NCBI GenBank assembly: GCA_017533505.1
Contig: JAFXIB010000109.1
Coordinates: 3,752-67,751, forward strand
Length of the DNA: 64,000 nucleotides
DNA from: Clostridia bacterium
GTDB taxonomy: Bacteria > Bacillota > Clostridia > Christensenellales > DTU072
Direction of reading: 5' to 3'
The notes below the pieces were generated by a model. That model made no database searches, was not told where the DNA came from, and saw only the letters and a list, made by a program, of their open reading frames with translations. The position numbers were made by a program, and so were the translations under genes. This document shows, in pieces, positions 23,462 to 63,096 of the stretch; position 1 is the first letter of the stretch, and each line of letters opens with the position of its first letter.

Positions 23462-23462
23462 C

Positions 23463-30828: not shown

Positions 30829-33800
30829 TTAGACGATATCGATAGAACAGAATACCTTTAGTACCGTGCCACTGCCGAAGTCCATATCAGTTACCAAGGT
30901 GTAACGACCGGAACGCTTGCTGGACTCGGTGCTGATTGCGCCGAAGCCTTCGGGAACCAAGGTACCGTATTGTCCGTTAACTGGGTTCCAACGGTTTGGA
31001 TCTTCCTTTTGGTTGGTCCAGTAGACCTTTGCGTTTTGCCATGGGATCAAGTACATGAGGTCGTACTCGAAGCCTTCAGATGTTTGTGATGTGAATACAC
31101 CACCTATTCCACCTGGGTTGTATTCAATGGTAGGTCTGTATTCGGTTACTGCGATGGTTGGTAGGTAACGGAGATCGAACATTGAGTTTACGGATACTCT
31201 GATTACTGGTGCGCCAGTTTGTTGCATTCTATTGTTCTTGTAAACAACGCGATAGCTTGTTGCATCCTTTGGCATTGTTACGGAGTTACCAACGATGTTA
31301 ACTGCGCCAAGTGCACTCATATCTTGTGGGTACAACCACTCTTCTGGGAGTAGAGGTCTGAGTTCGCTATAACCGAACATCGCATCTGGGTTGTGCAAGT
31401 ATGCACCGAATGACTTGAGGTTGTCATATGGGCCCTTGCCACCGTTTGCTTCCTTAACTTCTGGAGCATCCTCGGTTGCAGGATCTCTGTATACGGTAAA
31501 GACTATCTTGCCACCTACTGACTTGGTTGCCTTTGGATATGCACGCTCGCTTGTTGCGTCCCAAGTGATGAATGCGGAGTATCCTGAACCATCATCTGTG
31601 TAGTGGTATGATGGGGTGTGCATTGTGCTTGATACCATATAGCTTTGACCTTCTCTTGAAATACCAAGTGGGTAGGTGTCGCTATTGGTGCCACCTGATG
31701 AGTAGTAGCTGGTTACTCCTGATGAGTATTCAACTGGTATCCATCTGGATGAGCCAAGGGTTGAGCCTGCAAATAGTTGCTTATAGGTGCTTTCAAGGGT
31801 GATGCTTTCGCCAAGTCTCATGGAGTACAAGGTTGGGATGGTGTTGTTAACAAGTACCTTGTTGCTATTTACATAGAAGCCCCACTTTACTGTTTGACCA
31901 CCACGACCACCAAGAGTCATGTTAGCATATTGTCTTACTGTAGATGCTGCGCTCCATTGTACGGAGTCGAAGTTCCACTTGCCGTAGTTGTTGCTGTATG
32001 AGCCACTACCTGCTACACCTTCGAATGTGTACTTGCGTCCACTTGGGAATGTGATGGTGTAGGTGTCGTTCCTGTAGATGCCACTGCCTGCAACGATTTC
32101 TACATTACCAAGGGTTGATACTGTCAAGATATCCTTCTTGTATACGGAGCTGTTGCCTGGCATCAAGATTACTTCTTCCTTGCCATATTGATAGGTTTCG
32201 GAGAATAGGATGTCTTGTTGTTGTGCTGTATCCAATTGCCACTCATCGGAGATGTTGAACTTGAATGAATAGGTTTGTCCATCAAGGTCAAGTTGGAATG
32301 CAGTTGAGTGATCGAATACATTGTACTTAATTCTTGTACGGTTGTTTACGATGTTATCCCAGTTGGTTTCTGACATGAATGAGTAGGTTGCATAGTCTGT
32401 TGAAGCCATATCAATCTTGTTATCCATGTTCTTGCCAACATATACAAGAGCTTGTGTTGGCATTGGGATACCACCCTTTGTGATGTAGTAGTATGGGCTA
32501 TCTACAAAGTAGGTGTCATAGTAGTATTGACCGTATTGTGTTGGTGCCCATCTGATTGGTGCTCTGCCTGATGAATCTGCCTTGAATGAATTTGGATCGT
32601 TTTGCTTTAGCCACTCCATGTAATCCAAGGTGTAAGCAGTTGGATCGTTTTCGTCCTTATGAGAGTTCTTGTCGTAGAATCTTACGCCATGGATGTAGGA
32701 TTCTGCTACTGGAACATCAAATCTTGCGAGTTGTTGTCCCTTTGCACCAAGACCAAAGCCTGGGATGGTGATGTAGAATCTTGCATCCTTACCCTTATGT
32801 CCAAGACCTCTTGCTCCGTCAAGAACAAAGTTCATCTTGAGAGCAGCTTCTTCATCCTTAAACTCTAATTCATCTGCAAGAGATGCGCTGTTTGCACTTG
32901 CAAGTTGTCCAAGTGAGAAGGTGATGCTTCTTGTAGCAATCTCTCTGCCTTCTGGTAGGTTGCCGAATGCTACGGTGAATTGTCCCTTTGTGAAGTACTC
33001 TTCGGTTACTGCTGCGCTTACATCATCAACATAGCTGTAGAGATATGGTTGGATTTCGTCCTTGCCCTCTTGTAGTACATTGGTGAATGCTGTTGCAGTT
33101 CTGTCGTAAACGATTACCTTGTATCTCAATGATTGTTGGAAGGTGCCCTTGTAGCTTACGGTTGCAGTAACAAATCCTGTGGTTGAACCTGCATAAGTGC
33201 GAATTACCTTGCTGTCATCCCACTCTACGAGTACGCCACTGCCACTTGTAGCAAAGCTACCTACTGTGCCATCTGCGTATACAACATTGTTACCAACTTG
33301 TGGATATACATAATCCTTGCCGTATGCTGCAAATGGGTCAAGTTCGAAGTGCATTGATACTTCTACGCCTTCATAATCAGTGTCGTAAGCATATCTGCTT
33401 TCGTCTGCTGTGAAGAGTGATACAACCTTTCTGTTAGCGTAGTGAACTGGGATGGTGACGGTTTGATATCCACCAAGGTCGTTACCGATGGTTGCATATA
33501 GTCTTGCAGTACCACCTTCAACACCAACGGTTCCACTTCTTCTACCATGACTATCAAATGTAGTTAGTGCATCTACGCGATCGTACAAGATGTCGGATTG
33601 GAAGGTGTTGCCAGAAACTGTGTTGAATACACCAGCTTCGGTTGTTGTCATAACATCTGCTCCTTGTCCTACGAATGGGTCAAGCTCGGTTGCGAGTGAG
33701 CTATCTACACCATAGATATCAAGTTCGTATACTTCCTTTAGACCACTTTCGTAAGTCATATTGTGGATGGTGAGTGATACAGATGTTGTAAACTTGGTAT

Positions 33801-36800: not shown

Positions 36801-39800
36801 CTCTACCAACCACTGCAGTCCAAGTGTAGGTCCAGTTTCTATTGTCGCTGTAGTTGTAATCAAGCTTTGCTTGATCGTCTGCACGCCAGTAGAAGTCTTT
36901 GCCTTCAACCAATGTGGTGCGATAGAAGATGTTGTCTGCATCTACACCATAACCAACATCGATGGTATTTGGTAGGTTGAATGCGTTGACTGAACCTGAT
37001 GCAAGATAGATTGCTGTTCCAAGATCCAATCCAGCACCGATTGCACTCATGTTGTCAATATGCTTCTTGTTGAGCATTCTTGCTTCTTCAAGAATGGTTA
37101 CATATGCTTCGAAGTCTCTTTCGCTTACGCCACTTACTACGATATACAATGTACCATTTGTTGCTTCGTAAGCCTTGATGCCAGTGTTTGTTCTGTTGTA
37201 TTCAGCGATACCACCAAACTTTGCTACCTTGGTTGCTGGCCATAGAGCTGAACTTACTTCGGTGTTGTTTGCCTTGATAGCATTTACATCAAGATCAGCA
37301 ATGGTTGCTTCTACACCTGCTGGGTAGATAGCCATTACCATGTCATAGCCGATTTCGAAGCTTACGAGTAGAGTTGCATTTTGTCTTGCTTCAAATGGAG
37401 CAATATCACGATCAATAATGGTTTCTTCAAGGTTATGCTCAACAATCTTCTTGGGCAATACATTGATGTAGATGGTGATTACTTGCTTGTTGCCCATTGC
37501 ATCTTCAACGGTGAAGTATACTTCGTAAAGTGGGTGTGAAGTTGCTTCAAGGTCAAGATCTCTGATTGAGCTTGCATCAACACTAACTACATTCCAGTTA
37601 TTGATGGTTGTTGTCTTTGCATTGCCGTTTTCGTCAAGAACAACATTGTTTTCTCTATCAGTTTCATTTACGGTGATATCAATCCACTTGATACCCATGA
37701 TGTTGTTGTAGAGATTGCTGTTCTCAATTGGGTTTACGGTCAATACATTTTCTTGTAGTTGTGCTTCAAAGTTAGAGGTTGTGCCACTGTAGTGGTATAC
37801 TCTTTCGTTATCAGCAAGAACTGCATAGTTTGCAGAGTTGTTTTCGATCAAGCTATTTACGCCCTTGCCTACCAAGTAGTCGCGATATGACTCGAACTCA
37901 TCAAGAGATACACCTGTGTAAACAAGATATACTCTGTCGGTTGAGTTGTCACGATACATTGTCAAGGTGTTCATTGCGCCCATGTATTCTGGGAATGAAC
38001 CATACATTGCTGTTAGATCGGATACGGTAATGTTGTCAACAACTTGAGCAACATTGCTTACATATTGTGAATTGAAGCCAGCGATGGTAGCGTTTTCTCT
38101 GCCAACAGCTACTACCATTGTGCCACCCTTTTGATATACAAGGTTTACACCCATTACGGAGCTAATTCTATTGGTTGAAATAGCTACGCAGTTCTTTACC
38201 TTGATTGGTACTTGGATGGTGACTTCTTCAGAATCCTTACCAAGCATGATGTGATCCCAGTTGTCATAGGTACGCTTGAAGCTATATGTCAATGATGCAT
38301 ATGCGGTTGAACCATCATACTTGACTTCGGTTTCGCTCAAATCCCACTTGAGATCGTTGAATACATATCTCTTGAGGATGTAATCGGTTTCTTGTCCGTA
38401 GATGTTGAACTTTTGATATACACCTTGTTGCATGTAGCGTAGCTTTGCAGTGTAAACCAATGTGCTTGGGAGTAGCTTGATGTACTCATCTGGGTTGTAG
38501 GTGAGAGGATCAATTTCGGGTAGTGAGAGAACGGGCTCGGTGTTGTCCTCATCAATTACCCAGCTGATTTGTTGATTATTTCTTATGCCTTGTTCTTCAA
38601 GCTTCAAGGTAGAATCTGGGTCAACCATGATACCAGCTTCAACTTCAGCTTGGATGTATTGAACTTCACCATTTCTATCTTTAGAATAGGTTTCTTCTGC
38701 GCAGTAGCCAATGATGAAGCCCTTTGTTCCTTCCTTGCTTGGAGCAAAGCTGAGCATTGTGAAGTCCCAATATACTTCTACACCAGCAGATTCGGATGAG
38801 TTGCCGTCTTCGAAGTTAGCATAGTTACGGTTTGGTAGGATATCCTTGATGTCTGTTACAACATATGAACCATCAGAATTCAAGTTGTGACGGATACCTG
38901 CAGTTTCAGATGCCCATGTACCACCATAAGCTGTGAAGTCCAAGATATTATAAGGATCGTGGAATACAATCTTTGTGGGAGGAATCATCATGATTTCCCT
39001 CATACCTGTGCTACCATTTGCCTTTGAGTTGTAGAACTCGGAAGTCATGGTGGAAACAGATCTCATATAGATACCAGTATTGTTGATATCGATTTCTTGG
39101 AATCTGTCGTCCTTTGCACTCATGAGAGTCAATGCTTCTGCAAATGGTCCTACTGTATCATAATTGAGTCCTGTTGGGTTGCCTTGAGCATCTCTGATGA
39201 TTGGGTAACGGCTTACATATGAGAAATTGTAGCCTGAAAGAGCTTCGCTGTATAGTGCACTACCGGTTGCAAGTCCTGCCCAGTTGAAGTTTGGATCGTA
39301 CAAGTTTTCACTTACCATCCAGCTGATGTCACCATACAAGAAGTCTTCGGAGTCAAAGTGTCCGTAAACATCTCTTACATAGGTCTTACCAATCAAGGTC
39401 TTGGTTACTGCACCAGTTACAGGGTCAGCAGTATATTGATAATCGTTGATGATTACATAGCTGTTTACGATGTTGGTGTCTACCCAATCGTTTATCATCT
39501 CTTCAAGAGCAAGATACTTATCGTCGATTGGGGCGCCGGTTTCGGGGCTATAAAGGATGGTGTCAGCACGGAGAACGGTTGCATTTGGCATATAACCATC
39601 TTCTGTTTCAACAACAGAGTAGATTGGGTTGCCATCTTCGTCTGTGCCAGTTTGCTCATACTTGATACCAACTGCACCGAGAGTTGCTTCGGAGTAGCTT
39701 GCACCATTCAAGAACAATGTAATTCTATCAAGGAGTGTATCAACAGCATTGTTCAAGGTTACCTTTGCGTATACGCTCTTATCAATGAAGTCGATGTCAC

Positions 39801-51800: not shown

Positions 51801-54800
51801 CCATTACATCAATGATGAATCCTGTGCCGTTACCAAATACAAGTCTTACATAAGGTAGGAGTTCTTCAGAATCAAACTTGCTGTCAATAGCATATTTAGC
51901 AAGATATTCTTCATCACTCATCTTTCCAGAAGCGCGCAACTCTGATGTGCTTGCGTTTTGAACAGAGGTGTCGCCTTCGTATATTTCGTCGTCGTCTTCT
52001 TCTTCCTTATCAAAGTAATCTTTAAGACCATCTTGACCGATTAGTCTGAAGATGTGGTCAAGGAACATTTCAACCTTGATTCTTTGTATGCCAAGCATAC
52101 GGCCATCAATGTATGCTGTACCGTCTGCATAATATAAGGATATATAGTCGATGATTGTTTCAGTATATGTTACTGTTTCGCCCTTGAGTGCGCTTTGCTC
52201 AACATCAATGTATTCGCGTTCGACCTCAACACCAATACGGAGCATAAGTTCTGCTCTAACAAGCAACCAGTTGATGTCACCAGTTGCAACAACCTTCATA
52301 AGGTCATGCATGTTAATATTGAGTGAAAGCTCAAGTAATAGCTCTTTGTCTTCTAAACCAGAGTTCTCAATGATAGCACCAAAATCTACTTCTGTGAAGA
52401 ATGCTTCAAGGAGTTCTTTGAAATCAATTGCAGTTTCGGGAGTGGTGTCCTCTGCTCTGAGCTTGGTCTTACCACTAAATGAAATGTTGATGTTTTGTTC
52501 AGCCATTTCTGCTGGGTTGAACCAGTAGTAATGGTTGTTAGGATTGAGAAGGCCTCCTTGCATGGTGCCGTATTCGTCAATAGTACCGGTGTAGTAAGTG
52601 TCGTCTGGGCTTACGGATACATTTATAGAACCGATTTCAAGTTGAACTTCAAGGAGTTCTGCAAGGCTAATGTTTGCAAGCAAGAATGCACTTCTATAGC
52701 CACTTTCTGCCTTTTCATCTGGAATCTTGGCTGCGCCAAGCTCGATGAGTAGGCTTGGCTCGTGAATTCCAAAGAATTTAGATAGGTCTATTGCACCATA
52801 TTTACTTATGTCTATTGGCAAACCTGTTTCCATGCTATGTAGCAAGCCATAGTAGAGATACTCATAGTTTGCTTGTGTAATTTCACCACTTGCAAGCATG
52901 TCATCAAGCTCTGCCTTACGAATAGCTGTTAGACCTTTCTTCAAATTGTTATATTGATCTTCTGCATATACGCCGTCAAGCGCACTTATTGATGTATATA
53001 GGGTTTCAACAGGAACCAAATTTGCATTCAATGTATTAAGTGCTTCTTGGCTGATGTTGGGGAAGAATTGTGCGTGCTTTTCGCCTATCATTTCCTTGTA
53101 TTGAGCAAGGAATGCTGTGAATAGTGCATGCATGTCTTCAATAGACATATCCATGCTTAAGCTGTCAATTAAATTTACCCATACTGTGTCGATAGCGTTG
53201 TAATCTTCAATTGAAAGATTTCCTTGGCCTTCGTTATATTGGGCACTCAAAGAGCTTCTGTAGGTTTCTATCAATCCTTGGATAGCATAATAGTACTCTT
53301 GGGCTGAATATACACCAGTATTTACATAGGTTGAAATCTTGCTTTCATCAATCTCGATTTGGAATTCTTGGTCTGTTGAAAGCAAACTATTGGCAAGTGA
53401 GTAAATTGCAGCAGCAGGTGCAACGATAGCAACAGGTGCTCCGTTAGGAATGCCAAATGTATCTGGATCTGCAGTAATTGCCAAAATGATGGATGTTGCT
53501 GTCATGATGGAAGGAGCTACCTTACCATCAGCATTTCTTGGGAGAACCAAGCCGTTGTTTGTGGAGTTGAGAGCAACAGGATCGATAGTTTCAGTCTTGT
53601 TGGTCATAACCTCGGCAAAGTTTTCCATATATTCGGTAAATGCGTTGAAGTTATTGATGCGAATAATGTCATTAATCTCAAGAACATCACCAAATACTTT
53701 TGTAAGGTCGGCGAATACATTGAGGTCTATTTCGCCTGTGACAGGATCTTCTACGCCCATCAAGCTTACCCACATGATGTCACCACGGTTTTCAAGCTTT
53801 GGTGATGTGGAGAAGAATACTGATGCCTTCAAGTTAGCAATGTTGGAAATATCAAGGATAACTTCAATATCGTAATAGAGTGAGCCACCAAATGTTGCTG
53901 TGCCGTTTGCAACATTGCCTACAACTTCTACGATAAGTGCAAAGTTGAGGAGTGCTTGGTAGTCAACATTTGTTCTGACTTCTTCGTGATAAATGGCCTT
54001 GAGTTCATCATCACTATAACCTGCATATTCGGGCTTCAACGATGTTTCTCTAATCCATTGCAACATCTCTTTTTCAGCGTTTTCGCCGAGAATTTTCTTA
54101 AGTTCTTCTAAAATGTGAGTAAGAACCGTCAAATTACCCGTTGCGCCCGTTTCTGGATCAACAACACCTTCAGGGGAAGTTATTTCAAATTTAGCAACGC
54201 CACCAAGGCTAACACCTATGGTATCAAGAGATTCGATTTCGTCGTATTTAGCCTTTTCCTCTTCATCAAGCTCAACCATCTTGTCCATGAGGATAACAAG
54301 CTTGTTGATAGATGCGCTAAGAGTTACGAAGTTCTTGTCGTTTGGAGTTGCAGTACCCTCTTCGTCTTCACCATCCATACCTATATCGCGTAGTTTGAGT
54401 GCAAGGAAGATTTCAAGTGGGCTTGCGTTGATTCCAACTTCAACACCAAGGTCAAGGCTCTTGAGATATTCTTCGATATTCAATCCAAGCATGTTGAGTA
54501 CGCCAACTACAAATGACTTTGCAATGGTTACACTCAAACCATAATCTGCAAGAGCAAGATTGATATAGTACTTGATTGTGTCAACTTCAACGGGGTTAAC
54601 TTCTGCGCCTTCGTTGTTAGCATAACCAATTTCAACGCCTTCATTTGATGCTATTGCACCAAGTAGACCAGCAATGAGCTCGTTTGCTTGTGGAATATGG
54701 ATATACTCAAGATTTGCAATAAATGTTTCAATGTGAGCATATACATCGCCTTCGATGTAGTAAATTTCCATTACTGGACGACGAGCGCGATTACCATTTT

Positions 54801-57800
54801 CGTCATAGTAATCTTCGTCGCTTGGGTCAGATGATGCATATGTAGAAAGGATAATTGCAGCACCTGTTTGTTGTAGGTTTGCAAAGTCAAATCCATTGTT
54901 AATGATGCCAATAACTTCTTGGAGATTGAGGTTTGCGTTGATATCAAAGAACAATGATTCGTCAACAAGACCCAAGAACTCAATGAGCATGCTGAGCTCA
55001 ACATCGCCAAGTAGTCCACTGAGTGCAGGAGATAGGTCGATAGTGTTTCTATCGCTGCCTTCAACAACTTGGCTGTTGATGTTTGCGTATCCACCAAGTT
55101 CAAGGTATACATTTGTGGGCAAACCACTATCGGATAGGAAGAATTCTTCATTTTCTGGTAGAGAAACCAAGAATTCAGCGCCACTCAATTCTTCGCCGTC
55201 AAGAGCAATCTTGAATTGGCTCAAGCCAAGGCTCAAGTTGAAGATTTCGATACCAGTTTCAATTTCGAGATATGCGCCCTTGTCTCCTAGACCAAGCTCA
55301 AGAGATGTTTCTTGTATTTCAATTGGTAGTTCGCTTGAAAGGAATAGTCCAAGTAAACCTGCGATAGCATCCTTTGTAAGGTTGATTGCTACCTTATCGT
55401 AATCAAGAATAACTTGGAGTGCAACGGCTGCAGGATTTGATGCGTCAGCAAATTCAGCTACTCTATTGAGATGTAATAGGTTTGCAGGAGCTTCGTCCTT
55501 GTCTGCTTCAGCAGAGCCAGTTAGCGTGCCAATATCATCGATGAGTGATGCAACATCGTTGATACCGATGTTTGGAATGCCAAAGAAGCTTAAATCAAGG
55601 TATAGGTTGCCATCAAGCAAGTAAATGCCAAGAATGTGTCCTGCATCTCCTGGAACCTTTCTATCAAACAGACGGATTGCAAGCTCACTTCCACCCAAAA
55701 TTGTTGGGATAGGATCAGCTGCTTCGGAGCCGTCAAGCTTGATGATGCCACCAAGAGAGAGTTTTGCAATGATTTCAAAGCCAAGTTCGATGTTGAGTCT
55801 TGATGTATCAATTACCAAACCAAGACCTTCAATTAGGCCAGAAAGCATTTCGTTTAGATATGCATTGGTGTACTCTTGTACACCTTGCATAACTTGGTTG
55901 CCGTCCTTGTCAAGAACAGGAATCTTGTTTCCTTCGCCGTCTACAACATAGTTGCCTTCGTCGTCAACTTCATATACTGGAGTTTCGTCAACAGTAAAGT
56001 CAAAGTGGCCTTCAAGCCTCAAACCAACAGTTAGGCTATCAAGGAATTCAGGAATAGATACGAATGATTGGATATAATCGTCTTCTTCAATGTCCTTGTA
56101 GAGGTTTTCCTTGCCAGCTCTCAATGCGATATCCTTCAGGATATCGATTTCAAGAGAAATAGCTTCGATTGTTTGATCGCCATCGTCAAGGAGTGATAGG
56201 TAAATGCGTAGATATCCGTTTTCTGGGAATATTGTACTATTGCCATTTTCGTCTTTGCCAAAGTCAAAGTTGATAGCTTTGATTTGTACAAATGCATTTA
56301 CATTTGGCATTGTGATAGTTTCGGGGTTACCAAACTCATCAACTGGAGCAAGGAGCATGGTGAGCAAGCTGGAAAGTACATTTGCTGCTACATAAACAGT
56401 CAAAGTGCCCTTGATTCTATCAATTTCAACTTCGCTGAGTGCCATGCCTACGATTTGCATGATATCAAGACCGCCGCCCTCTCCTTCTGGAGTTTCGCCT
56501 TCGGTTGTATCGCCAGTAGGCTCGCCGTCATTGAGTGCGTTAAAGAGCATTGCGCCAACTTCTTCGCCACCGATAAGGATACCACTTGCAAGGTACTCAT
56601 TAACTACCAAATATTGGTATAGGCCAAGCTTTGCTTGGTTCAAGAAGTTAGGATCGGATGTATCAATAGTAAGTGCGTTTTGTGCTCCACTATCTTCGCT
56701 TGTAAGCAGTCCTGCAATGATTGATGCAATATCAAGACCTGCAAGTGTATCACGCAAGCCTAAACCTTCGTATTTGAGTCTTGGGAGCTTGCCAAGAGAA
56801 GCAAATCCCATGTTCTTGAGTGGCTCAAGGTCAATGTACAATGTATCTTCGATACCAGAGTAAATAACACGAATGAATGGGTCGTTATTTGCACGATTGA
56901 AGATGGTAACCTTGAGTTCGGTTTGAGCCATATCAAGAAGGTCAATATTTCCTTGAATGGTGTAAGCAATGGTTGTGCTACCATCGTACTCTACGCCGAT
57001 AGAAAGGAGTAGATTGTCAACAAAAGTACCAATTAGACCACTTAAATCAAGGCCCTTGTCTGTTGTTTCGGATGCGCCAAGCGTTACATCACCTTGCAAA
57101 ATAACATTGTAGTTACGGTTTGCAGCGATAAAGTCGCCATTATCAGTCTTATAGATGGATAGGTTGGTGTACTTTGCGCGTTCTTCGGCAGTATCTACCA
57201 TTGAGTAGTTTTCCCAATCGGGCTCTCTCATGTATGTTAGGTAGTCAACAGCAAGACCAAGACGGAAGGTGTCGGATACATCAATAACCAAGCCAAGAGT
57301 GTCAAGAACATTCTTTTGGTTGAAGCTGAGTCTTACATTGAGCTCTTCGCCAAGGTTACCTTTTAGTGGCGTAATCATGCCAACGATTTGTGATAGGTCC
57401 TCGCTGTTTAGGTCAAGAGCGATATTCCAATCGTTTGGTATGGGCTTTCCATAAGCATCGGTCTTAACGGTACCATCTTCGTTATATAGATATTCTTCGA
57501 TACCAGGAAGCTCGAGATTGTTGAGAACAACCTTTATGATTGCCATGACATCGATGCTTGGTGCAGGTTCGCCACCCTCTTCGCCTTCATTAAACAAGCC
57601 ACCAAATAGTGCATTAGACGCTTGTTCTTCGGGAACAGCAGGCTTTACATAGTTGGGGTCAAGATATGGCAAAATGCCACCTAATACGCCACCAAGGAGA
57701 TTGTTGATATCAAAGCCTTGTAGAACTACATTTGGTAGCAATTGTCCACTATATGTTTCGAGGTCCTCAAAGTTGATGTAAAGGTTCATTCCTGTTAGGA

Positions 57801-59277
57801 ACAATCTCATAAGTGGTGAGTCGTTGAAGCTAATGGTAATTTCGGCTTGTGTCTTTGCGCCATCAAAGAAGTCAAGAGCAAGCTTTACATCAAGACCAAG
57901 TTCATAACGAGCTGCGTATGGAAGGCTGATGGGCATATCGCCAAGTGCGCCAAGGTTGAGGTCAAAAGCTTCACCCAGTACACGATTGATGGTTAGACCA
58001 CCATTTTCGTCATTTTCAAAGTATAGAGTTGCGCCCAAGCCAAGGTTGCCGATGCCACCTTCTGAATAAGTATCCTTTCTGCCTTGTTCGTTGAGTCCAA
58101 GTCCACCAAAGTTGATTTGGATCTTCTTGTTTGAGCCATATAGCAATGGGGTAAGACCGATGTTAACTTCGTATTCTTCAATGCGTTCGCCCTCTGCCAT
58201 GTCAGATGGATATGTATCAGCATATGTTTCACGAGTCTTTTCTACATCGTTTGCAGTTTTGATATCAATGCCAATGCCCTTCATAACATAGCCTTCTTCA
58301 TTTACAATAAGGCCGTCGCTATCGGTCTTTGTGAGTGTTTCAAGCTCTGTTCTTGCGCTCAAACGAGCATCCATCTTGGGCCAATCCTTTGCGCCAATAC
58401 GCTCAAGGTTAAAGCCAAGGAATTGTAGTAATACTGGGTCAAGGTTTAGACCAACAAGGTCCCAAATGCCAGCAAAGCTTATGGTGATAACGCCAGGAAT
58501 GGAAATACCACTACCTGAAAGCATGTCAATCAAAGTGTTAAGCTTGAGGCTGTATTCTAAATCTCTGTTTTCAAAGACTTCGTCTTCGCGTTGATTGTAA
58601 CTTGTTACATAACCATTGCTGTTGAACAATAGGGTTCCCACAAGACCCATAATGCCCAAATCGTCAAGAGCAGCTATACCTGTTTTACCACCTGCCATGA
58701 TAGCCGCAAACAATTGGTTAACATCAATACCGGCACTTTGTAGTACACCAAAGAGCGCTCCACCCACCTCTGTGAAGTTCAGCTCAGGCATATAATATTT
58801 TTGTGTGCCTACGCAAACATAAGTGTATCCACTTGCATAGTAGACTGCCATAACAGCCAAGTTATTGGCATTTCTAACTTGCATGAACAACTCACTTTTG
58901 TTGTTGTCCTTGAGGTGCAAGTTGCCCTTCATTTCGATAGTGAAAGCAGAAGACTTGTTATACTTCTCCTCGCTATCAAGCCAGAAGTGCTCAAATGCAT
59001 ATGTAAGTGTAAGGTCGATGATGAACCATTCTGGATCCTCTGGAGCTTCGTAGAAAGTCTTGTAGTTTGACAAAGCTTCGGTGGTCTCTTTCTTGAGGTC
59101 ATCGGTCTTGGTCCTTACGGATTGGACAACCTTGTCGGCAACTTGGTTTTCGTCACCAGGCAAGATTTGATCATCGGGGAGAGTTTCATCTCCACGAGGG
59201 GAACAAGCAAAAAGTGCAACTACCAATGCAACTACGATAAGTAGCAACATCAGTTTGTGGGCTAAATTGCGGTTCAT
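30829..59277 (-). CDS. Giant 9,482-aa predicted surface lipoprotein: ~14 tandem novel modules, glycine-zipper segments, CarboxypepD_reg-like domains, C-terminal Big_4-like Ig array
   Basis: 28,449 nt with no stop codon in an AT-rich genome. AAAGGAG RBS 8 nt before the ATG and a near-consensus promoter at 59373-59401. The signal peptide ends in LFAC. The internal architecture is described in the findings. I recognised no LPXTG, SLH, dockerin, RTX, Rhs/YD or enzymatic motifs. Confidence 0.9.
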   Translation of the reverse strand: MNRNLAHKLMLLLIVVALVVALFACSPRGDETLPDDQILPGDENQVADKVVQSVRTKTDDLKKETTEALSNYKTFYEAPEDPEWFIIDLTLTYAFEHFWLDSEEKYNKSSAFTIEMKGNLHLKDNNKSELFMQVRNANNLAVMAVYYASGYTYVCVGTQKYYMPELNFTEVGGALFGVLQSAGIDVNQLFAAIMAGGKTGIAALDDLGIMGLVGTLLFNSNGYVTSYNQREDEVFENRDLEYSLKLNTLIDMLSGSGISIPGVITISFAGIWDLVGLNLDPVLLQFLGFNLERIGAKDWPKMDARLSARTELETLTKTDSDGLIVNEEGYVMKGIGIDIKTANDVEKTRETYADTYPSDMAEGERIEEYEVNIGLTPLLYGSNKKIQINFGGLGLNEQGRKDTYSEGGIGNLGLGATLYFENDENGGLTINRVLGEAFDLNLGALGDMPISLPYAARYELGLDVKLALDFFDGAKTQAEITISFNDSPLMRLFLTGMNLYINFEDLETYSGQLLPNVVLQGFDINNLLGGVLGGILPYLDPNYVKPAVPEEQASNALFGGLFNEGEEGGEPAPSIDVMAIIKVVLNNLELPGIEEYLYNEDGTVKTDAYGKPIPNDWNIALDLNSEDLSQIVGMITPLKGNLGEELNVRLSFNQKNVLDTLGLVIDVSDTFRLGLAVDYLTYMREPDWENYSMVDTAEERAKYTNLSIYKTDNGDFIAANRNYNVILQGDVTLGASETTDKGLDLSGLIGTFVDNLLLSIGVEYDGSTTIAYTIQGNIDLLDMAQTELKVTIFNRANNDPFIRVIYSGIEDTLYIDLEPLKNMGFASLGKLPRLKYEGLGLRDTLAGLDIASIIAGLLTSEDSGAQNALTIDTSDPNFLNQAKLGLYQYLVVNEYLASGILIGGEEVGAMLFNALNDGEPTGDTTEGETPEGEGGGLDIMQIVGMALSEVEIDRIKGTLTVYVAANVLSSLLTMLLAPVDEFGNPETITMPNVNAFVQIKAINFDFGKDENGNSTIFPENGYLRIYLSLLDDGDQTIEAISLEIDILKDIALRAGKENLYKDIEEDDYIQSFVSIPEFLDSLTVGLRLEGHFDFTVDETPVYEVDDEGNYVVDGEGNKIPVLDKDGNQVMQGVQEYTNAYLNEMLSGLIEGLGLVIDTSRLNIELGFEIIAKLSLGGIIKLDGSEAADPIPTILGGSELAIRLFDRKVPGDAGHILGIYLLDGNLYLDLSFFGIPNIGINDVASLIDDIGTLTGSAEADKDEAPANLLHLNRVAEFADASNPAAVALQVILDYDKVAINLTKDAIAGLLGLFLSSELPIEIQETSLELGLGDKGAYLEIETGIEIFNLSLGLSQFKIALDGEELSGAEFLVSLPENEEFFLSDSGLPTNVYLELGGYANINSQVVEGSDRNTIDLSPALSGLLGDVELSMLIEFLGLVDESLFFDINANLNLQEVIGIINNGFDFANLQQTGAAIILSTYASSDPSDEDYYDENGNRARRPVMEIYYIEGDVYAHIETFIANLEYIHIPQANELIAGLLGAIASNEGVEIGYANNEGAEVNPVEVDTIKYYINLALADYGLSVTIAKSFVVGVLNMLGLNIEEYLKSLDLGVEVGINASPLEIFLALKLRDIGMDGEDEEGTATPNDKNFVTLSASINKLVILMDKMVELDEEEKAKYDEIESLDTIGVSLGGVAKFEITSPEGVVDPETGATGNLTVLTHILEELKKILGENAEKEMLQWIRETSLKPEYAGYSDDELKAIYHEEVRTNVDYQALLNFALIVEVVGNVANGTATFGGSLYYDIEVILDISNIANLKASVFFSTSPKLENRGDIMWVSLMGVEDPVTGEIDLNVFADLTKVFGDVLEINDIIRINNFNAFTEYMENFAEVMTNKTETIDPVALNSTNNGLVLPRNADGKVAPSIMTATSIILAITADPDTFGIPNGAPVAIVAPAAAIYSLANSLLSTDQEFQIEIDESKISTYVNTGVYSAQEYYYAIQGLIETYRSSLSAQYNEGQGNLSIEDYNAIDTVWVNLIDSLSMDMSIEDMHALFTAFLAQYKEMIGEKHAQFFPNISQEALNTLNANLVPVETLYTSISALDGVYAEDQYNNLKKGLTAIRKAELDDMLASGEITQANYEYLYYGLLHSMETGLPIDISKYGAIDLSKFFGIHEPSLLIELGAAKIPDEKAESGYRSAFLLANISLAELLEVQLEIGSINVSVSPDDTYYTGTIDEYGTMQGGLLNPNNHYYWFNPAEMAEQNINISFSGKTKLRAEDTTPETAIDFKELLEAFFTEVDFGAIIENSGLEDKELLLELSLNINMHDLMKVVATGDINWLLVRAELMLRIGVEVEREYIDVEQSALKGETVTYTETIIDYISLYYADGTAYIDGRMLGIQRIKVEMFLDHIFRLIGQDGLKDYFDKEEEDDDEIYEGDTSVQNASTSELRASGKMSDEEYLAKYAIDSKFDSEELLPYVRLVFGNGTGFIIDVMGSVLFAILGGLDLGIDGVDDLGSLVAAIVNDHFALQLGLIANLAYMNDFWTNDPDENGVVTEDENALLGLTLELANYTVGFALMGLDVDFKDSSEENPSLAPVAFDDEAYSEATDLSEVYVELYVDFDIDGDNNAKFNLDETVAGALGMLGSGGIMDTIGGLGLAPIIQLLSTVSTHYRLEIIGNINFDEILELNTLYKTNFAITLRDRNKVINYDGEEKFKEVLSVYYVDTAIYINAECFNLQAVKIDNAWNFLTQEILPAFGVPHTPNDKNPDGGKPVNAQNLGFAGYESVNGFDPYSLFNLPAGATAIPGYINILFSPEGFIISLTTTALFGVLRAIGGEAMDFSSFVEPIGELEIELGLAGPETLLALDITFQGYEFSGDERVDLSTDPNVHEYKKGGKIGIGLSISNTFVAALSYQWMEDIYYSDGRIESHYVDHNIEAPRYAYLDGETLDEEGNVVTEYIAQEYVEFDQSDPVIGLELNLYLDLGSEALSGDGIKGVLTDKIYSGYDLNKEPITSLLASLLGSMLDTTLSLLLEVVGEHQMSVEVEILVNFPLLNYRGVEAQITIRRIDGNHNYKLVQVNLHNSFLYVDLTYLNGPKFSVADVLETLLGEKDFDLMGDGEKKEETEGTEGEGTVEGGVQNASGVQNATGSGVSTPIYIDLATQMVIRSVATHGLALYVTETAVNSILGMFEFANLKVFSDVLLQISIAPKANTFNLGIDLELSATSTVDDISDTAKVLDLGIAIGDHRVNFERYPSDQLLLPQTANYLPAHNVNTIEVEAGFEIRLKVNDGVVDLGNLYKTILDENGPLGEMAANTAFETLFSKDSPLATALPNLIMLGFLNDDENGFGDVIRIDIEAKVFIKGGLQGLLDNLQLKVAIYSLKDQERFKIVITYYNGDLYLDLSTLGLGKIEIWELGGMINFLINGGKTEEESPEGEVTNPDEGAQNAVTPETEQLFAKTYPTWGQVLGLNNESDEEQLVGIVKILLSQDDGLLLTVTFEMINVVLGLVGLNIPLEDYLKGVIEPSAGVGMTPNSEYHVDINLDTGKDYRDVWEYNEATGEYEIVPEKQEDNSNAGIKLGIAILGEQIAADIKNETKIHTPHGIQSTLEPVISQEEISSYTKYDEMAFQIGTNISIQLDFEDGDVSLVDLLDLVFGMLNIKLPEDLDTSIVLAGGDETLFMEINLKAGLDLKRMLSTDPEVFNSALILDLVIRYTIIDNTTGEIYDTQKLLQVYMVDNVAYLGVELFDTNLDIKLDEFDITGLIRDVMTGIFDMEDEDQGIGGGSTGGNESNVQNAPSTVPDGPARNPIIDMYEESDYAIGNFLKPIIYLNSEGFGLMITKELLVGVADALVDILTGLLGSANSDVEVTEDTINGIASLVLDHASLGLFFEEGTGGVSLQINITKNSTEIETEDGNKYMSAGYAATLSLLHDSVALINTDSFNEYLDFMRNDEEQVKFYEGCFSTSDVEWRVNLGIDITVGADIREYILNWSSLFQNEADENGNVVGAAFYIQALNDIIGDATLRIKADVKLTALDKWGIDAVIQLVKLKEDGTYAEGESDVLEEYFALYVVGSLNQSESDYNENGLGLYLNMAGFEELGITGITLNSAVFEQFLNLNLKAVLDSLGGTLGNATSGIVKTLDDLIESLYGMLADEDITGDNSGANAGENAPQNGVQNAAEEDDENIYDYEEEEKEEETMWYIGLLDSIQFTKGAISIVVAQTAIQTILDQLFGFPFDEKIGNLAVVLDNTGNSLSLNLGLDYQEPIDASETEIADISTTIASSESVDVLMNTMGGVAAFLNGVEATFEANSYSVYASRGYLGTALDSEAYGITSVGAGLNVEYLVYSTEDIFALEKNVDYTAEEINNRANAVKDALVDSLTNRGGYGVAYNDATGVYLLTNDSAHTRVSIKVSEGDVLLAVVVGTADAPALNIAGINISSLGEKLVSVVSEQAALEKIRETYEAGFLIGATIPTDNGDIALRAENTYLRQQVISEDKDFALEDSGTRNVFYFIYDPSIYFAIDPALNPGSDEYLQASKANAQKVVDAISEFLQLKTYVWSENADGVISLYHYGTMLNASLKVAPVVDLGTGMVECYKVLMVVSSSKSMYNVSLSIHNLDIGLGENTNIFEETPLDGMMRDDFQAYFAENFRPLSDYKMEAEVNLEINIDDTVGGLFDMSELLGTIGGLIGGDIASMISQINLALQPIDDIAIAIGLHLRLFIDFGDITPLRLQLEMTYNDKTMILITYVGNYEQDENGIYENSTAYVDLSGLGFPSVKLEGLQLGAVLKNLVGGLAGGDNASTASDTSALNAQNATQEGDNALESVDKIEDQHIDRVYLKDYGWTERLLLLTFGADETSLAITGALVYSLLSNASKNDAIAGIMGGAELLLPMFRNIQVGYSNEDGVYGLCLRLTDDTPYEKAFRIGFNGRQGKFEMWTDENKGSSITAREQVEGSAEDGIVYEDIGIISKVALNLELEARVRTRDTEKAPQLVAMQELLQNLLGMSADTINFDVQNTVLVFSLGLTVFADLADMTNTTLALTINLTGEELIGVYFLGKNNTAYVNLSGLGLFQAALNGVDVLGILNSFLGSFLGDEGINLNEMLSGILTVEDKENAAVNANNALSTASAQDGAISLNDKAQNGIMDLVTSTDAPLLKILLSNEELIINPNMAIVQTLLGDSMVLPNLTDLRLSINLYQGLNNLNLRVKLDQKGNYINLAVHEGNFAIALGSTAELYKLTTIGDESQYGGIEGLTVGMDSAGNLAANISVLTLAQGILDVIQMSDFTIYIEKRNDYFFLRNLGYGMAKGVFFDFGIGFGVSLTTGPTYFSPVVRAFADENGLTPYDHAFVSKGGAFDWVINIGSFSIDVGGLLKAYEPIFFDNAYRRIRLALNKTVTNKVEIPINQLTQVANVQGSLSNEDDWEPQSLTAFIRNNVLHLSLASILVLDISGLINTVAGWLLETIVGAINGIAGTVVGLVWDLAGPYVSTWIADMIGDATGYGSPLRLGAIIDDLLGGGAGGIALVNLYLPEFLPTLVASLKPVAEDTNYGSIYGNVNTFDADANAYVPVEGATVTLDNGRYTTTTDKDGYYSFINIRPNTYPIKITKTGYNDLPRRGETQPYVTILRSNERPSTEANFTLNSYSVTTWKNVHFKVTTEEEYIENNTATRPMVGAKVEIYRNGAWQELGVTPDSGSIQVVIESLEGFNHTIRLTKTNGQVINQTLGLNLNADGTPNSRTAENPYTMHFKTTVYHEPTSGTMSAILITLKDETLLDSGTATEVFTLLAKDQKGGNTYDDGKANQIDSIFNDTFDDALEAQAGRVYSSYEQNGILYHVYDFDSADKVTTGIKNLVENTLKTDTQANYTITENIPNMYYHAVSYDKRAIVEVRGFISQKILEQGITTPVYRVVVAMQKAVTTPVLSGVEIWLELDGRTIRMADDWNGLNQNTVHYKKPDNTGSEQGDWYWANNARNFLAAAQNNNSQSDINVKNVNNLRSNGSFDIPNLALHRNYTLKVRATDYVNFDVGSFTLTETANYYNFGEIFLDPKPVPEWMTKDLSSSALLQGLRLRLGADVSDASSVDKNDQSLEDAGYTQDGIPLTQYSYLTSLGDQTINALISIGKGQASSAITNAISNAIGGIGGSIVSGLAGNVLGSLLGSVTGVDTTSQYLDAMGKPIFVPWTNYVAGFEEGREDTSDSITYIEVWIASDMINGVFDMVHNLLLGYSGYSPISKTQRYNMADLCAVPAGTEEKDIKKLNFIGEYNEDLDIRMFDYVYENQAEYTNTLYTAGGRLVGSLLAGVISSLLGGDLNGIFNIVQMVLYEINFLMDIIDQALRLVSHLLPFSSAYSMIAEQGLAGSPLQQSAIASTIWEADTAYGFLDSEYNEQTGVYEPVVEGTAATIEEVGLDDDITKILIDPTHELNGGRFDHLDTDVKDLINNQGLLQKGDRLVGYNYYNYAQYGYSTLKNVIDGEHDGLVNIDATFDDDGNIKTGYYRDIDFIDKSVYAKVTLNNAVDTLLDRITLFLNGASYSEATLGAVGIKYEQTGTDEDGNPIYSVVETEDGYMPNATVLRADTILYSPETGAPIDDKYLALEEMINDWVDTNIVNSYVIINDYQYTADPVTGAVTKTLIGKTYVRDVYGHFDSEDFLYGDISWMVSENLYDPNFNWAGLATGSALYSEALSGYNFSYVSRYPIIRDAQGNPTGLNYDTVGPFAEALTLMSAKDDRFQEIDINNTGIYMRSVSTMTSEFYNSKANGSTGMREIMMIPPTKIVFHDPYNILDFTAYGGTWASETAGIRHNLNSDGSYVVTDIKDILPNRNYANFEDGNSSESAGVEVYWDFTMLSFAPSKEGTKGFIIGYCAEETYSKDRNGEVQYIQAEVEAGIMVDPDSTLKLEEQGIRNNQQISWVIDEDNTEPVLSLPEIDPLTYNPDEYIKLLPSTLVYTAKLRYMQQGVYQKFNIYGQETDYILKRYVFNDLKWDLSETEVKYDGSTAYASLTYSFKRTYDNWDHIMLGKDSEEVTIQVPIKVKNCVAISTNRISSVMGVNLVYQKGGTMVVAVGRENATIAGFNSQYVSNVAQVVDNITVSDLTAMYGSFPEYMGAMNTLTMYRDNSTDRVYLVYTGVSLDEFESYRDYLVGKGVNSLIENNSANYAVLADNERVYHYSGTTSNFEAQLQENVLTVNPIENSNLYNNIMGIKWIDITVNETDRENNVVLDENGNAKTTTINNWNVVSVDASSIRDLDLEATSHPLYEVYFTVEDAMGNKQVITIYINVLPKKIVEHNLEETIIDRDIAPFEARQNATLLVSFEIGYDMVMAIYPAGVEATIADLDVNAIKANNTEVSSALWPATKVAKFGGIAEYNRTNTGIKAYEATNGTLYIVVSGVSERDFEAYVTILEEARMLNKKHIDNMSAIGAGLDLGTAIYLASGSVNAFNLPNTIDVGYGVDADNIFYRTTLVEGKDFYWRADDQAKLDYNYSDNRNWTYTWTAVVGRDDNVQEIAVDFTVERRSPRSVDQITVYPYSSYYITGTNTEIDDNASVLENEQKVLFSTASGNQTLSTQVYFDIESTDWADEVEGDEVIINGKKYLTNVRFIAPSFEGAWYFADVLLHDDVFGYVTIKHVRIVLSKSTISSLNIPAMEVYLYDADAGIDALLAQDGITASIHQVANNTIGTKAFEIISWSYVDANGFKPSYSYEGEDAPQINIEIGNVGYKEGNHIWSQQVTFTLTEEMLPAKVIESINNTTETGYSVEYKENAVNGEGTNGAYILSIGDPFKFALPTALDVTFADGTVGSVPVSFDFGDDKFDFYKATAGICGTVTLGDKANNQVVLNMNYVNLNPRGDIQVTFYSDESLTQEFNTFTYNAFDVFELPKFAQLTVGGALETNVYNVYWKYIEGYGVNGGEIEALAWIGDDVFGYIQKKVTFTINAEHIVNYTLPNSVRLNPYAVVGIEAELDNLLGLTNGMLDVQTSLGLNKALDVRYPDIPMDYRVTTTNDVDLEVGVTLDFGGVERIVTLDEEGNIIGSTTGALDVREELPVMVIVESRVAVGIKTWYTDANTNITGSIYEPIDFSALGLATIVAIGNGKNNANTLISDATSLAQAIEGATLVEETVWPSAVNGWNKATEYAKANGQIAKVYYNEALDTYYIAYRGSVDVKALTDKIEESGLYTRIKDGTYLVTGDDVMVEVKAFNEGVTVLFESGEEEKYDLTFDTTGLTYNFTGGTYNVKATLGSGATEQIFQFKVYLHSTWLTDISVTSAGLSQNSVVRTNDDGIITGLVVDPFVGFEGLPSKVLAHFNYHSSPVEIDVDWSYERILSQMTMAGGEFNRDNNKAAIATIYIPSEDGRQAAQPIEIPVTVLNRESRAVYVSKYASHEDWQKAVDTLGASVAGAEFTIFTAELALNPYETKYSEDFASDDFFFFRRVMLMVNRIEGEDTSSNIFEHNDKEIIFNLTADSYEIRDTATNRPTNLNNLYTGRSVEAIFNYGSTSASASRDTKFTTSVSLTIHNMTYESGLKEVYELDIYGVDSSLATELDPFVGQGADVMTTTEAGVFNTVSGNTFQSDILYDRVDALTTFDSHGRRSGTVGVEGGTARLYATIGNDLGGYQTVTIPVHYANRKVVSLFTADESRYAYDTDYEGVEVSMHFELDPFAAYGKDYVYPQVGNNVVYADGTVGSFATSGSGVLVEWDDSKVIRTYAGSTTGFVTATVSYKGTFQQSLRYKVIVYDRTATAFTNVLQEGKDEIQPYLYSYVDDVSAAVTEEYFTKGQFTVAFGNLPEGREIATRSITFSLGQLASANSASLADELEFKDEEAALKMNFVLDGARGLGHKGKDARFYITIPGFGLGAKGQQLARFDVPVAESYIHGVRFYDKNSHKDENDPTAYTLDYMEWLKQNDPNSFKADSSGRAPIRWAPTQYGQYYYDTYFVDSPYYYITKGGIPMPTQALVYVGKNMDNKIDMASTDYATYSFMSETNWDNIVNNRTRIKYNVFDHSTAFQLDLDGQTYSFKFNISDEWQLDTAQQQDILFSETYQYGKEEVILMPGNSSVYKKDILTVSTLGNVEIVAGSGIYRNDTYTITFPSGRKYTFEGVAGSGSYSNNYGKWNFDSVQWSAASTVRQYANMTLGGRGGQTVKWGFYVNSNKVLVNNTIPTLYSMRLGESITLESTYKQLFAGSTLGSSRWIPVEYSSGVTSYYSSGGTNSDTYPLGISREGQSYMVSSTMHTPSYHYTDDGSGYSAFITWDATSERAYPKATKSVGGKIVFTVYRDPATEDAPEVKEANGGKGPYDNLKSFGAYLHNPDAMFGYSELRPLLPEEWLYPQDMSALGAVNIVGNSVTMPKDATSYRVVYKNNRMQQTGAPVIRVSVNSMFDLRYLPTIAVTEYRPTIEYNPGGIGGVFTSQTSEGFEYDLMYLIPWQNAKVYWTNQKEDPNRWNPVNGQYGTLVPEGFGAISTESSKRSGRYTLVTDMDFGSGTVLKVFCSIDIV
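40801..40920 (-). other. Glycine-zipper hydrophobic segment 2 of the giant protein
   Basis: Translates to GQASSAITNAISNAIGGIGGSIVSGLAGNVLGSLLGSVTGV, with Gly at every 4th residue over about 25 aa. Confidence 0.6.
42440..42640 (-). other. CarboxypepD_reg-like (Cna-B-like) beta-sandwich domain in the giant protein
   Basis: SIYGNVNTFDADANAYVPVEGATVTLDNGRYTTTTDKDGYYSFINIRPNTYPIKITKTGY fits the G.V.d..g.Pv.gA.V.l......t.Td.dG.Y.f..l..G.Y.l...k.Gy pattern. Confidence 0.6.
42661..42950 (-). other. Glycine/alanine-rich hydrophobic segment 1 of the giant protein
   Basis: Translates to LDISGLINTVAGWLLETIVGAINGIAGTVVGLVWDLAGPYVSTWIADMIGDATGYGSPLRLGAIIDDLLGGGAGGIALVNLYLPEFLPTLVASL. Confidence 0.55.
59203..59277 (-). 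other. Signal peptide with a lipobox-like cleavage site on the giant protein
   Basis: MNRNLAHKLMLLLIVVALVVALFAC-SPRG has a positive n-region, a 15-aa hydrophobic core and L-F-A-C at residues 22-25. Phe at position -2 is atypical, so cleavage by SPase I rather than SPase II is possible. Confidence 0.55.
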
Positions 59278-63094: not shown

Positions 63095-63096
63095 TA

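Follow-up and report, generated by a model that had tools for sequence, protein, structure and literature searches.

A 9,482-codon open reading frame from a gut Clostridia bacterium is predicted to encode a megadalton lipoprotein of an undescribed family

A window of 64,000 nucleotides from a Clostridia bacterium (GenBank assembly GCA_017533505.1, contig JAFXIB010000109.1, positions 3,752 to 67,751 of the forward strand) was analysed. On its reverse strand lies one giant open reading frame (ORF), which an earlier note, made from the letters alone, had described as the uninterrupted gene of a surface lipoprotein. The features of the locus are collected in Table 1. Positions are those of the window, residues (aa) are those of the giant protein, and loci of relatives are designated by L numbers.

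Table 1. Features of the giant gene, its protein and its neighbours
Feature	Position	Strand	Remarks
Giant coding sequence	30829..59277	-	single ORF; 9,482 aa, ATG start, one terminal stop
Sigma-70-type promoter-like site, TTGACT-17-TAGAAT	59373..59401	-	10/12 matches, ~96 nt upstream of ATG; consensus match only
5' leader hairpin and U-run, terminator-like	59342..59360	-	between promoter-like site and ribosome-binding site; leader fold -24.6 kcal/mol, z = -2.9
Ribosome-binding site, AGGAG	59286..59290	-	8 nt ahead of ATG; direct reading of the upstream sequence
Intrinsic terminator, hairpin and U-run	30730..30801	-	directly after the stop; -37.9 kcal/mol, z = -6.2
Lipoprotein signal peptide (predicted), lipobox LFAC, Cys25	59203..59277	-	N-terminus of the giant protein
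Array of ~15 very divergent ~300-400-aa alpha/beta modules	43393..59190	-	aa ~30-5295; hidden Markov model (HMM) iteration, hhalign, composition
Insertion between modules	45478..46410	-	aa ~4290-4600; mostly absent from the 7-8 k-aa members
Gly-rich hydrophobic joint	42658..42990	-	aa ~5430-5540; family-conserved
Two tandem CnaB/transthyretin-like beta-sandwich domains	42028..42636	-	aa ~5548-5750; the first is Pfam CarboxypepD_reg
Mixed region	39178..42027	-	aa 5751-6700; a further glycine-zipper-like stretch at aa ~6120-6165; no domain recognised
C-terminal ~2,780 aa	30832..39177	-	non-repetitive, richer in Trp/Tyr/Thr/Ser, Big_4-like motifs; among the best-conserved parts of the family
PIG-L deacetylase, ROK-family, DUF4380-like and transglutaminase-like (cut by the window end) genes	59713..63993	-	upstream; syntenic in L001, L002, L004, L005, L007, L008
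2,095-aa protein: Peptidase_M6 (InhA-like), RCC1 beta-propeller, Big_3, C-terminal dockerin	24184..30471	-	downstream; syntenic in L009, L010, L013
242-aa protein with Big_3 and a lipobox of its own, LVSC	23463..24191	-	syntenic in L013
GH20 beta-N-acetylhexosaminidase	21995..23473	-	syntenic in L013

A single giant gene under purifying selection

The predicted product of the giant ORF has a mass of 1,040 kDa (1.04 MDa), a pI of 4.22 and a net charge of -798. The window is free of N, and no other ORF in it comes anywhere near this length. With the base composition of the ORF itself, stops would be expected about every 17 codons, and the probability that 9,482 codons remain open by chance is ~1e-250. 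The five remaining frames over the same DNA contain 355-768 stops each. The earlier statement that these frames close within tens of codons holds on average, though not without exception: their longest open runs reach 96-211 codons. Likewise, the genome had been called AT-rich, and it is so only moderately: G+C content is 40-44% across the window, and the composition is unbroken at the giant gene.

An alignment of the N-terminal region was used to scan species-representative genomes for orthologous loci. Six were found in metagenome-assembled genomes (MAGs) of gut Clostridia, belonging to Ca. Stercoripulliclostridium spp., a roe-deer colon MAG (88% identity), and Brazilian and other bins (~50%). 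In all six the ORF stays open up to the end of the available DNA, which in three of them means at least 4,232 codons. In 14 other loci, orthologues run colinear with the giant ORF, at 41-92% identity. The ratio of nonsynonymous to synonymous substitution (dN/dS), calculated by the method of Nei and Gojobori, was 0.055 over the first 4,200 codons against L008, the 88%-identical orthologue, and ranged from 0.044 to 0.071 across the 600-codon bins. Against L003 it was 0.10, and against L010 0.16 (C-terminal 1,700 codons).

In several relatives the giant gene seems at first sight to be broken. The breaks in L009 and L011 fall exactly on 100-N scaffold gaps. Compared with conspecific MAG loci, which are intact, ENA contigs L001 and L002 have a local duplication or deletion of ~40 nt, and the MAG locus L010 carries one frameshift, 95 residues short of the protein end. 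The frameshifting indels were placed at ~12,246 in L001, ~9,028 in L002 and ~5,234-5,294 in L010; in these three public assemblies they are due either to errors of assembly, the gene being hard to assemble, or to inactivation at the level of strains. The idea that the gene is divided into several genes in relatives, which the earlier note had raised against a single ORF, was rejected, because gaps or local indels explain the splits. Taken together, the exact coordinates, the colinear and open relatives and the dN/dS of 0.05 bear out the claim of one uninterrupted ORF of 9,482 codons. Judged by its conservation, the giant ORF is a genuine and strongly conserved gene.

The ribosome-binding site, near-consensus promoter and strong terminator that had been claimed were all located (Table 1). 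The hairpin and U-run in the leader is possibly an attenuator; no Rfam family matched anywhere in the window, this hairpin included. Behind the gene, positions 30577-30800 form a tandem duplication of two ~97-nt copies, 127 nt apart and 88% identical. Each copy contains a long GC hairpin followed by a U-run, so that two terminators would stand in series behind the giant gene.

A lipoprotein signal and no C-terminal anchor

The N-terminus of the giant protein reads MNRNLAHKLMLLLIVVALVVALFAC followed by S. It comprises a positively charged n-region, MNRNLAHK, and the h-region LMLLLIVVALVVALFA, which is the most hydrophobic segment of the whole protein (Kyte-Doolittle 2.86). A lipobox cysteine (x-x-[AGS]-C) stands at residue 25-28 in 57 of the 57 N-termini of the family (~24 distinct sequences), which supports the proposed signal peptide ending in LFAC. 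LFAC itself fits the lipobox pattern [LVI][ASTVIF][GAS]C, and Cys25 falls in the usual range of ~15-35 residues from the start. No further hydrophobic segment of transmembrane quality was found in the giant protein. Overlapping tiles of ~950 aa were searched with Pfam, NCBIfam and PHROGs; Pfam on these tiles and a motif check gave no LPXTG/sortase motif near the C-terminus, and no SLH, CWB, dockerin, LysM, choline-binding or GW element in the giant protein. The unusual arrangement noted before, with an anchor at the N-terminus and none (LPXTG, SLH, CWB or dockerin) at the C-terminus, thus holds. From these features the giant protein is predicted to be a lipidated, surface-exposed lipoprotein.

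Most of the protein matches no described family

Across all tiles and all three collections, the sole domain above cutoff was CarboxypepD_reg at aa ~5565-5611, and ~98% of the giant protein has no match to any described protein family. PHROGs gave zero matches. Searches of PDB sequences and profiles with both halves of the protein, with aa 4600-5750 and with the module core described below returned nothing except CarboxypepD_reg. No tile matched enzyme or toxin models (Pfam, NCBIfam, PHROGs), models of FIVAR/GA (Ebh), RTX, Rhs/YD, RCC1 or nonribosomal peptide/polyketide synthases (Pfam, NCBIfam), sequence models of AsmA, DUF748, TamB or Chorein, or any adhesive Pfam family. An NCBIfam model of an anammox S-layer protein matched locally over the CarboxypepD_reg beta-sandwich with 34.6 bits against a cutoff of 1400, and was rejected as evidence of membership. 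The scans agree with the view that the protein is unlike Ebh-type FIVAR/GA, RTX, Rhs/YD and peptide or polyketide synthase proteins and that most of it cannot be assigned; no tile fits a described adhesin family.

An array of divergent modules

Self-BLASTP and phmmer revealed almost no internal repeats, and hmmsearch with orthologue profiles revealed few. The array became visible with iterated HMMs over the family and when profile tiles were compared family-wide with hhalign, which gave probabilities of 85-98% for tiles set apart by 287-361 aa or a multiple of this. By this profile-profile comparison ~15 divergent modules follow one another over aa ~100-5200, which supports the first part of the three-part layout proposed earlier (tandem divergent modules, aa 1-5300). 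The core of the module can be written '...vYYxG..LY[IV]DLSxLGlP..ki..l...i..lL.G'; after it comes an acidic linker, in many cases with xQNA at its end. A longer consensus of the core is 'IDL..LLg.Ll.gL ... l.l.IkanidL.Dl....L.L.I..n....l.vYY.G..LYiDLS.LGlpk.kI..l...I..lL.G'. The module region is Leu-rich (12-16%) and very acidic, with linkers that are acidic and Gly-rich. No relatives of the module profile were found among PDB sequences, even at E <= 10, nor in Pfam or NCBIfam.

The tripeptide QNA occurs 10 times, against 1.3 expected, and eight of these sites lie in module linkers after Gly/acidic runs (aa 866, 2440, 3137, 3143, 3444, 3792, 4174 and 4811; window ~44,800-56,700, minus strand). 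Distant members show PQNA, SNAE or NAEG at equivalent places. The linker motif might serve for processing, or else as a structural cap.

Structure prediction gave little for the modules. With AlphaFold2 (AF2), aa 26-1200 reached a mean confidence (pLDDT) of 29.7 from 3 sequences, and aa 4600-5750 reached 45 from 7 sequences, good only for the beta-sandwich pair described below. The low-confidence models of the modules display long beta-hairpins alternating with helices. Mean-field direct coupling analysis (DCA) of 145 module copies (effective number 128) was mostly noise; a few strong pairs fit antiparallel hairpins around YY..LYIDLS.

The insertion at aa ~4290-4600 seems by eye to consist of two small alpha/beta-looking units, and similar-looking stretches occur at the same place in some relatives (P0010, P0014 and P0029).

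From the joint to the C-terminus

Near aa 5300-5400 the composition of the protein shifts. The Gly-rich joint that follows contains '...GAINGIAGTVVGLVWDL...GDATGYGSPLRLGAIIDD...', also given as 'GAINGIAGTVVG...GDATGYGSPLRLGAIIDD', and in relatives 'GDLTGYGNPL[KR]LG' is retained within it. The Gly-rich segments were considered as transmembrane helices and rejected as such, since they are interrupted by D/E, reach Kyte-Doolittle values of ~1.6-1.8 and are not hydrophobic in every relative.

CarboxypepD_reg (PF13620) scored 47.5 bits against a gathering cutoff of 32.3. The pair of beta-sandwiches to which this domain belongs is the sole Pfam-recognisable part of the protein, ~2% of its length, and was modelled by AF2 at pLDDT 60-79. 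Profile matches in the PDB were to NOMO, to C-terminal domains of carboxypeptidases D and M and to scaffoldin X-modules (4u3s, 4wi0, 5k39, 4fl4). Foldseek returned only CnaB/transthyretin-type structures, namely the B. anthracis TIE protein, streptococcal and lactobacillar pilins, SdrD B-repeats and scaffoldin X-modules; C-terminal domains of carboxypeptidases D and N were matched at a root-mean-square deviation of ~3 A and a CnaB2 domain with a target-normalised TM-score of 0.70. By Pfam score and modelled fold, aa ~5548-5750 is a CarboxypepD_reg/CnaB-like beta-sandwich of the prealbumin type.

The last ~3,700 aa are essentially without internal repeats, even at the profile level. Trp is more frequent beyond the array (55 in the 4,182 aa of aa 5301-9482, 1.3%, against 24 in the 5,300 aa of aa 1-5300, 0.45%), and Tyr, Thr and Ser are likewise commoner there. 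Motifs of the type 'LP.R....F.DG.S...GV.V.WD' are conserved, with a looser Big_4-like version at aa ~6810-6837. Big_4 itself (PF07532) scored 18.2 bits at aa ~7775 against a cutoff of 22.1 and matched one of five orthologue fragments (E = 0.0033). The C-terminal ~2,780 aa are presumed to form a beta-sandwich array and a distal tip.

These results agree in part with the layout set out in the earlier note. The modules, the change of composition, the Gly-rich segments (aa ~5430-5540 and ~6120-6165) and the non-repetitive C-terminus were found. A Big_4-like Ig array at aa ~6900-9482 is presumed from one Pfam Big_4 match below threshold and one orthologue match, and its signature LP.T..V.Y.DG.....V.WD has zero matches in the exact form, the looser family-conserved version at aa ~6810-6837 excepted. 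Among the three CarboxypepD_reg-like sandwiches proposed, one was recognised by Pfam and a second by AF2 and Foldseek, but the third was not verified. The suggested combination of AlphaFold and Foldseek yielded CnaB/transthyretin-type matches only, the modules being modelled with low confidence.

The protein family

A word-indexed search of 5.8 billion proteins returned two matches with aa 1-1200, four with aa 8283-9482 and two with aa 5750-6950, every one of them a fragment of an orthologue. An exhaustive HMMER scan of 1.84 billion cluster representatives with an N-terminal profile retrieved 46 proteins (clusters). Nearly all of those that are not obviously fragments align from at or near their own first residue, and near-complete giants of 7,125-7,879 aa are among them. 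Six independent full-length members align end to end with the window protein at 25-46% identity. The 7,879-aa form is intact and of identical length in nine NCBI assemblies, on contigs of up to 221 kb, and the form of 7,264-7,268 aa was found in 19 Logan assemblies.

The extra length of the window protein consists of insertions at aa ~2001-2200, 4301-4600, 7001-7100, 7301-7400 and 8101-8200. A unit of ~130 aa has been duplicated internally in this lineage (aa 7045-7175 resembles aa 7304-7438; window 37753-38145 and 36964-37368, minus strand), and this accounts for two of the insertions that lengthen the protein relative to its 7-8 k-aa relatives.

The sole existing name for a member is 'carboxypeptidase-like regulatory domain-containing protein [Clostridia bacterium]' (NCBI), given after the CarboxypepD_reg domain, and literature searches found no description of this family. 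As far as seen, it is confined to uncultured gut-associated Clostridia. On the evidence of its sequence, the giant protein appears to mark an undescribed family of giant cell-surface proteins.

Gene neighbourhood

The giant gene stands in a block shared across the clade, with the order transglutaminase-like, DUF4380-like, ROK, (PIG-L), giant, ~2,100-aa protein, ~250-aa protein, GH20, P-type ATPase. The block persists where the ~2,100-aa partner is only 30-34% identical (34% in L013). In the family this partner carries Big_2/Big_3 domains besides Peptidase_M6, RCC1 and dockerin. In the 2,095-aa protein of the window the Peptidase_M6 match sits at the Pfam threshold, and so does Dockerin_1 (23.9 bits for the whole protein against a cutoff of 22.9; 20.4 bits in the L013 orthologue). 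This combination of domains is itself unusual, and it has been kept beside the giant gene in several relatives.

The 242-aa Big_3 gene shares 8 nt with the end of the 2,095-aa gene and 11 nt with the beginning of the GH20 gene, an arrangement suggestive of translational coupling within a single operon. Elsewhere in the window, on the minus strand, two ORFs of 559 aa (17566-19245) and 371 aa (6756-7871) have no Pfam family; immediately downstream of the former is a gene for an S26 signal peptidase (17007-17564).

Discussion

What function could a protein of this kind have? Invariance was counted over seven full-length family members. Among 390 invariant columns, Gly (74), Tyr (47), Pro (41), Leu (40), Phe (35), Asp (33) and Trp (15) together make up 285, and the invariant columns hold one His and one Cys, the latter being the lipobox Cys. 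Such a composition, with almost no His or Cys, argues for a structural protein rather than an enzyme. The conserved lipobox, the lack of any other membrane segment, the tandem modules, the CnaB-type stalk, the acidity and the conserved aromatic-rich C-terminal part point in the same direction. With moderate confidence we take the giant protein for a surface fibre of giant size, without enzymatic activity, that is anchored by lipid, belongs to the adhesin or scaffold type and has its binding end distal. Lipidation, surface exposure, the shape of a fibre, the binding function and the ligand are all matters that we infer.

In such a fibre, the protein would be exported through Sec, modified with diacylglyceryl and cleaved at Cys25, and its N-terminus would remain attached to the cytoplasmic membrane on the outer side. 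The chain would then reach outward from the cell and form a long fibre, very acidic and without enzymatic activity. Its membrane-proximal rod would be built from ~15 divergent copies of the new ~330-aa alpha/beta module, followed outward by the conserved Gly-rich hydrophobic joint and a short stalk of the CnaB/transthyretin type. The distal ~3,700 aa, heterogeneous, aromatic-rich and probably folded into beta-sandwich domains, would offer the binding surfaces. The role would probably be surface attachment or scaffolding, with glycans or the co-encoded M6-peptidase/RCC1/dockerin protein as candidate partners.

Several points weigh against this reading. As AF2 is unusable on the modules, a rod-like form is assumed for 56% of the protein. 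That the C-terminal third consists of beta-sandwiches is drawn from one sub-threshold Big_4 match, a motif and composition. 'Adhesin' is an argument from architecture, as no known adhesive domain was found. Purifying selection is the sole sign that the giant ORF is translated. In the species of the window, aa ~4245-5750 are backed solely by distant relatives of 30-40% identity, and a local assembly error is conceivable within this part. As regards the neighbourhood, the giant gene in L014 lacks the block and is followed by housekeeping genes instead; the flanking P-type ATPase is also syntenic, so part of the conservation may reflect the relatedness of the genomes.

A more specific variant is suggested by the dockerin on the product of the adjacent gene. 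The giant protein might be a lipid-anchored, non-cellulosomal anchoring scaffoldin, in which unrecognised cohesin-like beta-sandwich domains of the C-terminal half bind the dockerin of the 2,095-aa M6/RCC1 neighbour, and possibly other dockerin proteins, and display a protease or propeller away from the cell. It would refine the surface-fibre reading, not exclude it. The neighbour ends in a Dockerin_1 domain, the giant and dockerin-protein genes are kept as a pair in the window and in L009, L010 and L013, and the CarboxypepD_reg-type domain resembles scaffoldin X-modules. However, Pfam Cohesin (PF00963) matches none of the overlapping tiles at E <= 0.1, though divergent cohesins are possible; the dockerin scores lie at threshold, and L014 has the giant gene without this neighbour. 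On balance we hold this variant to be rather unlikely. The same doubt attaches to a bolder, speculative picture. In it the ~330-aa unit would be a new fold, and its ~15 copies a lipid-anchored rod passing through and beyond the wall. This rod would be the platform of a surface system of unknown type in gut Clostridia, whose distal domains dock the dockerin-bearing M6/RCC1 protein and/or host or microbial glycans. The whole would be a megadalton, lipoprotein-based analogue of a cellulosome anchoring scaffoldin, without detectable sequence relationship to one.

Three further explanations fare much worse. The excess of QNA in linkers, together with PQNA, SNAE and NAEG in the linkers of distant members and an S26 signal peptidase gene 13 kb away, could point to a polyprotein that is cut at the acidic xQNA linkers into ~15 module subunits and a C-terminal piece, which assemble into a surface layer or sheath. 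However, QNA as such is not conserved in the family (0-6 per member). Type I signal peptidases follow the AxA rule, which the motif does not fit. No dedicated protease was found, only the first module would stay lipid-anchored, and there is no evidence of cleavage. Such processing is very improbable.

Hardly more credible is an envelope-spanning transfer or bridge protein, in which Leu-rich beta-hairpin modules would form a hydrophobic groove, as in AsmA, TamB or VPS13, and move lipids or polymers through the wall. Its appeal lies in the Leu content of the modules, in their alternating hydrophobic beta-strand patterns, in the long hairpins of the low-confidence AF2 models and in the weak DCA pairs, which agree with consecutive antiparallel hairpins. 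Against it, no tile matches AsmA, TamB, DUF748 or Chorein, the modules are of extreme acidity and joined by long linkers that are acidic as well, and half of the protein is unrelated to the modules. The host lineage, moreover, belongs to a spore-forming clade of Clostridia, with no sign of an outer membrane as destination.

A secreted enzyme or toxin with cryptic catalytic domains, such as a polymorphic toxin or a glycan-degrading megaenzyme, could be imagined from neighbours that are glycan-related (GH20, PIG-L, ROK) or proteolytic (M6), and the ~98% of sequence without a family could hide a domain. We think it a poor candidate, since no catalytic family was recognised in Pfam, NCBIfam, PHROGs or PDB profiles and the invariant residues are almost devoid of His, Cys, Ser, Lys and Glu. 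In addition, the C-terminus is conserved in the family, unlike the variable ends of polymorphic toxins, and it is the 2,095-aa gene, not an immunity-type gene, that follows. Finally, an assembly artefact, or a decaying pseudogene open by chance, which the frameshifting indels in L001, L002 and L010 might suggest, is effectively refuted by the chance probability of ~1e-250, the dN/dS of 0.05, the intact conspecific MAGs of L001 and L002, the exact coincidence of the remaining splits with 100-N gaps and the presence of full-length relatives in dozens of assemblies.

The surface-fibre reading invites comparison with known systems. Gram-positive fibrillar adhesins such as SdrD, pilins, Ebh and SasG are likewise very long, acidic, secreted multidomain proteins without a catalytic signature, in which tandem units fill most of the length, and the CnaB/transthyretin stalk domains match the SdrD B-repeats and pilins. 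In contrast to them, the giant protein would be anchored by an N-terminal lipobox, so that its polarity is reversed, and it has no known adhesive domain. Its C-terminal 3,700 aa are non-repetitive. As its main repeat it has a ~330-aa alpha/beta module that is new, rather than an Ig-like or listed stalk domain, and its repeats are nearly invisible to BLASTP. The survey of fibrillar adhesins by Monzon et al. 2021 (PMC8286594) lists LPXTG, SLH, LysM, choline-binding and GW as anchors; the word 'lipoprotein' is absent from it, and lipoprotein anchoring is not considered there. When its criteria are applied, the tandem stalk is present here, and the other two of the three, an adhesive domain and a wall anchor of known type, are lacking.

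Giant genes of gut Clostridia were described by West-Roberts et al. 2023 (bioRxiv 10.1101/2023.11.21.568195), with RCC1 throughout, Listeria-Bacteroides repeats, YG repeats, leucine-rich repeats and dockerins, along with giants of the Omnitrophota type, which have many transmembrane regions and SecA-like domains. The giant protein shares with the former its habitat and class, its predicted extracellular location and an association with RCC1 and dockerin. Unlike them, it contains none of their repeats, and RCC1 and dockerin are found on the neighbour protein; unlike the Omnitrophota type, it lacks transmembrane regions and SecA-like domains. The likeness to cellulosomal anchoring scaffoldins would consist in a large surface-tethered scaffold, an X-module-like beta-sandwich (4u3s, 4wi0, 5k39) and an adjacent gene whose product has a threshold-level dockerin match, whereas no cohesin was detectable, there is no SLH or sortase anchor, and glycoside-hydrolase dockerin partners were not seen in the window. 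Among CarboxypepD_reg/CnaB prealbumin-like domains, aa ~5548-5750 appears as a member by Pfam score and fold, for only ~2% of the giant protein. What is new here is a predicted giant bacterial surface protein that consists largely of an undescribed module and would be anchored the opposite way round.

If this is true, the protein would be among the largest predicted bacterial lipoproteins and would represent a family absent from every domain database; ~9,300 of its 9,482 residues experience strong purifying selection and have no known relative. The giant surface proteins of gut Firmicutes would then not all be arrays of known repeats with C-terminal wall anchors, and lipobox anchoring with reversed polarity would be an option that adhesin surveys currently overlook. 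The ~150 module copies should be enough input for structure predictors to reveal what is probably a new fold. The conserved pairing with an M6-peptidase/RCC1/dockerin protein and with amino-sugar genes would offer a concrete hypothesis about the interaction of these uncultured gut Clostridia with their environment.

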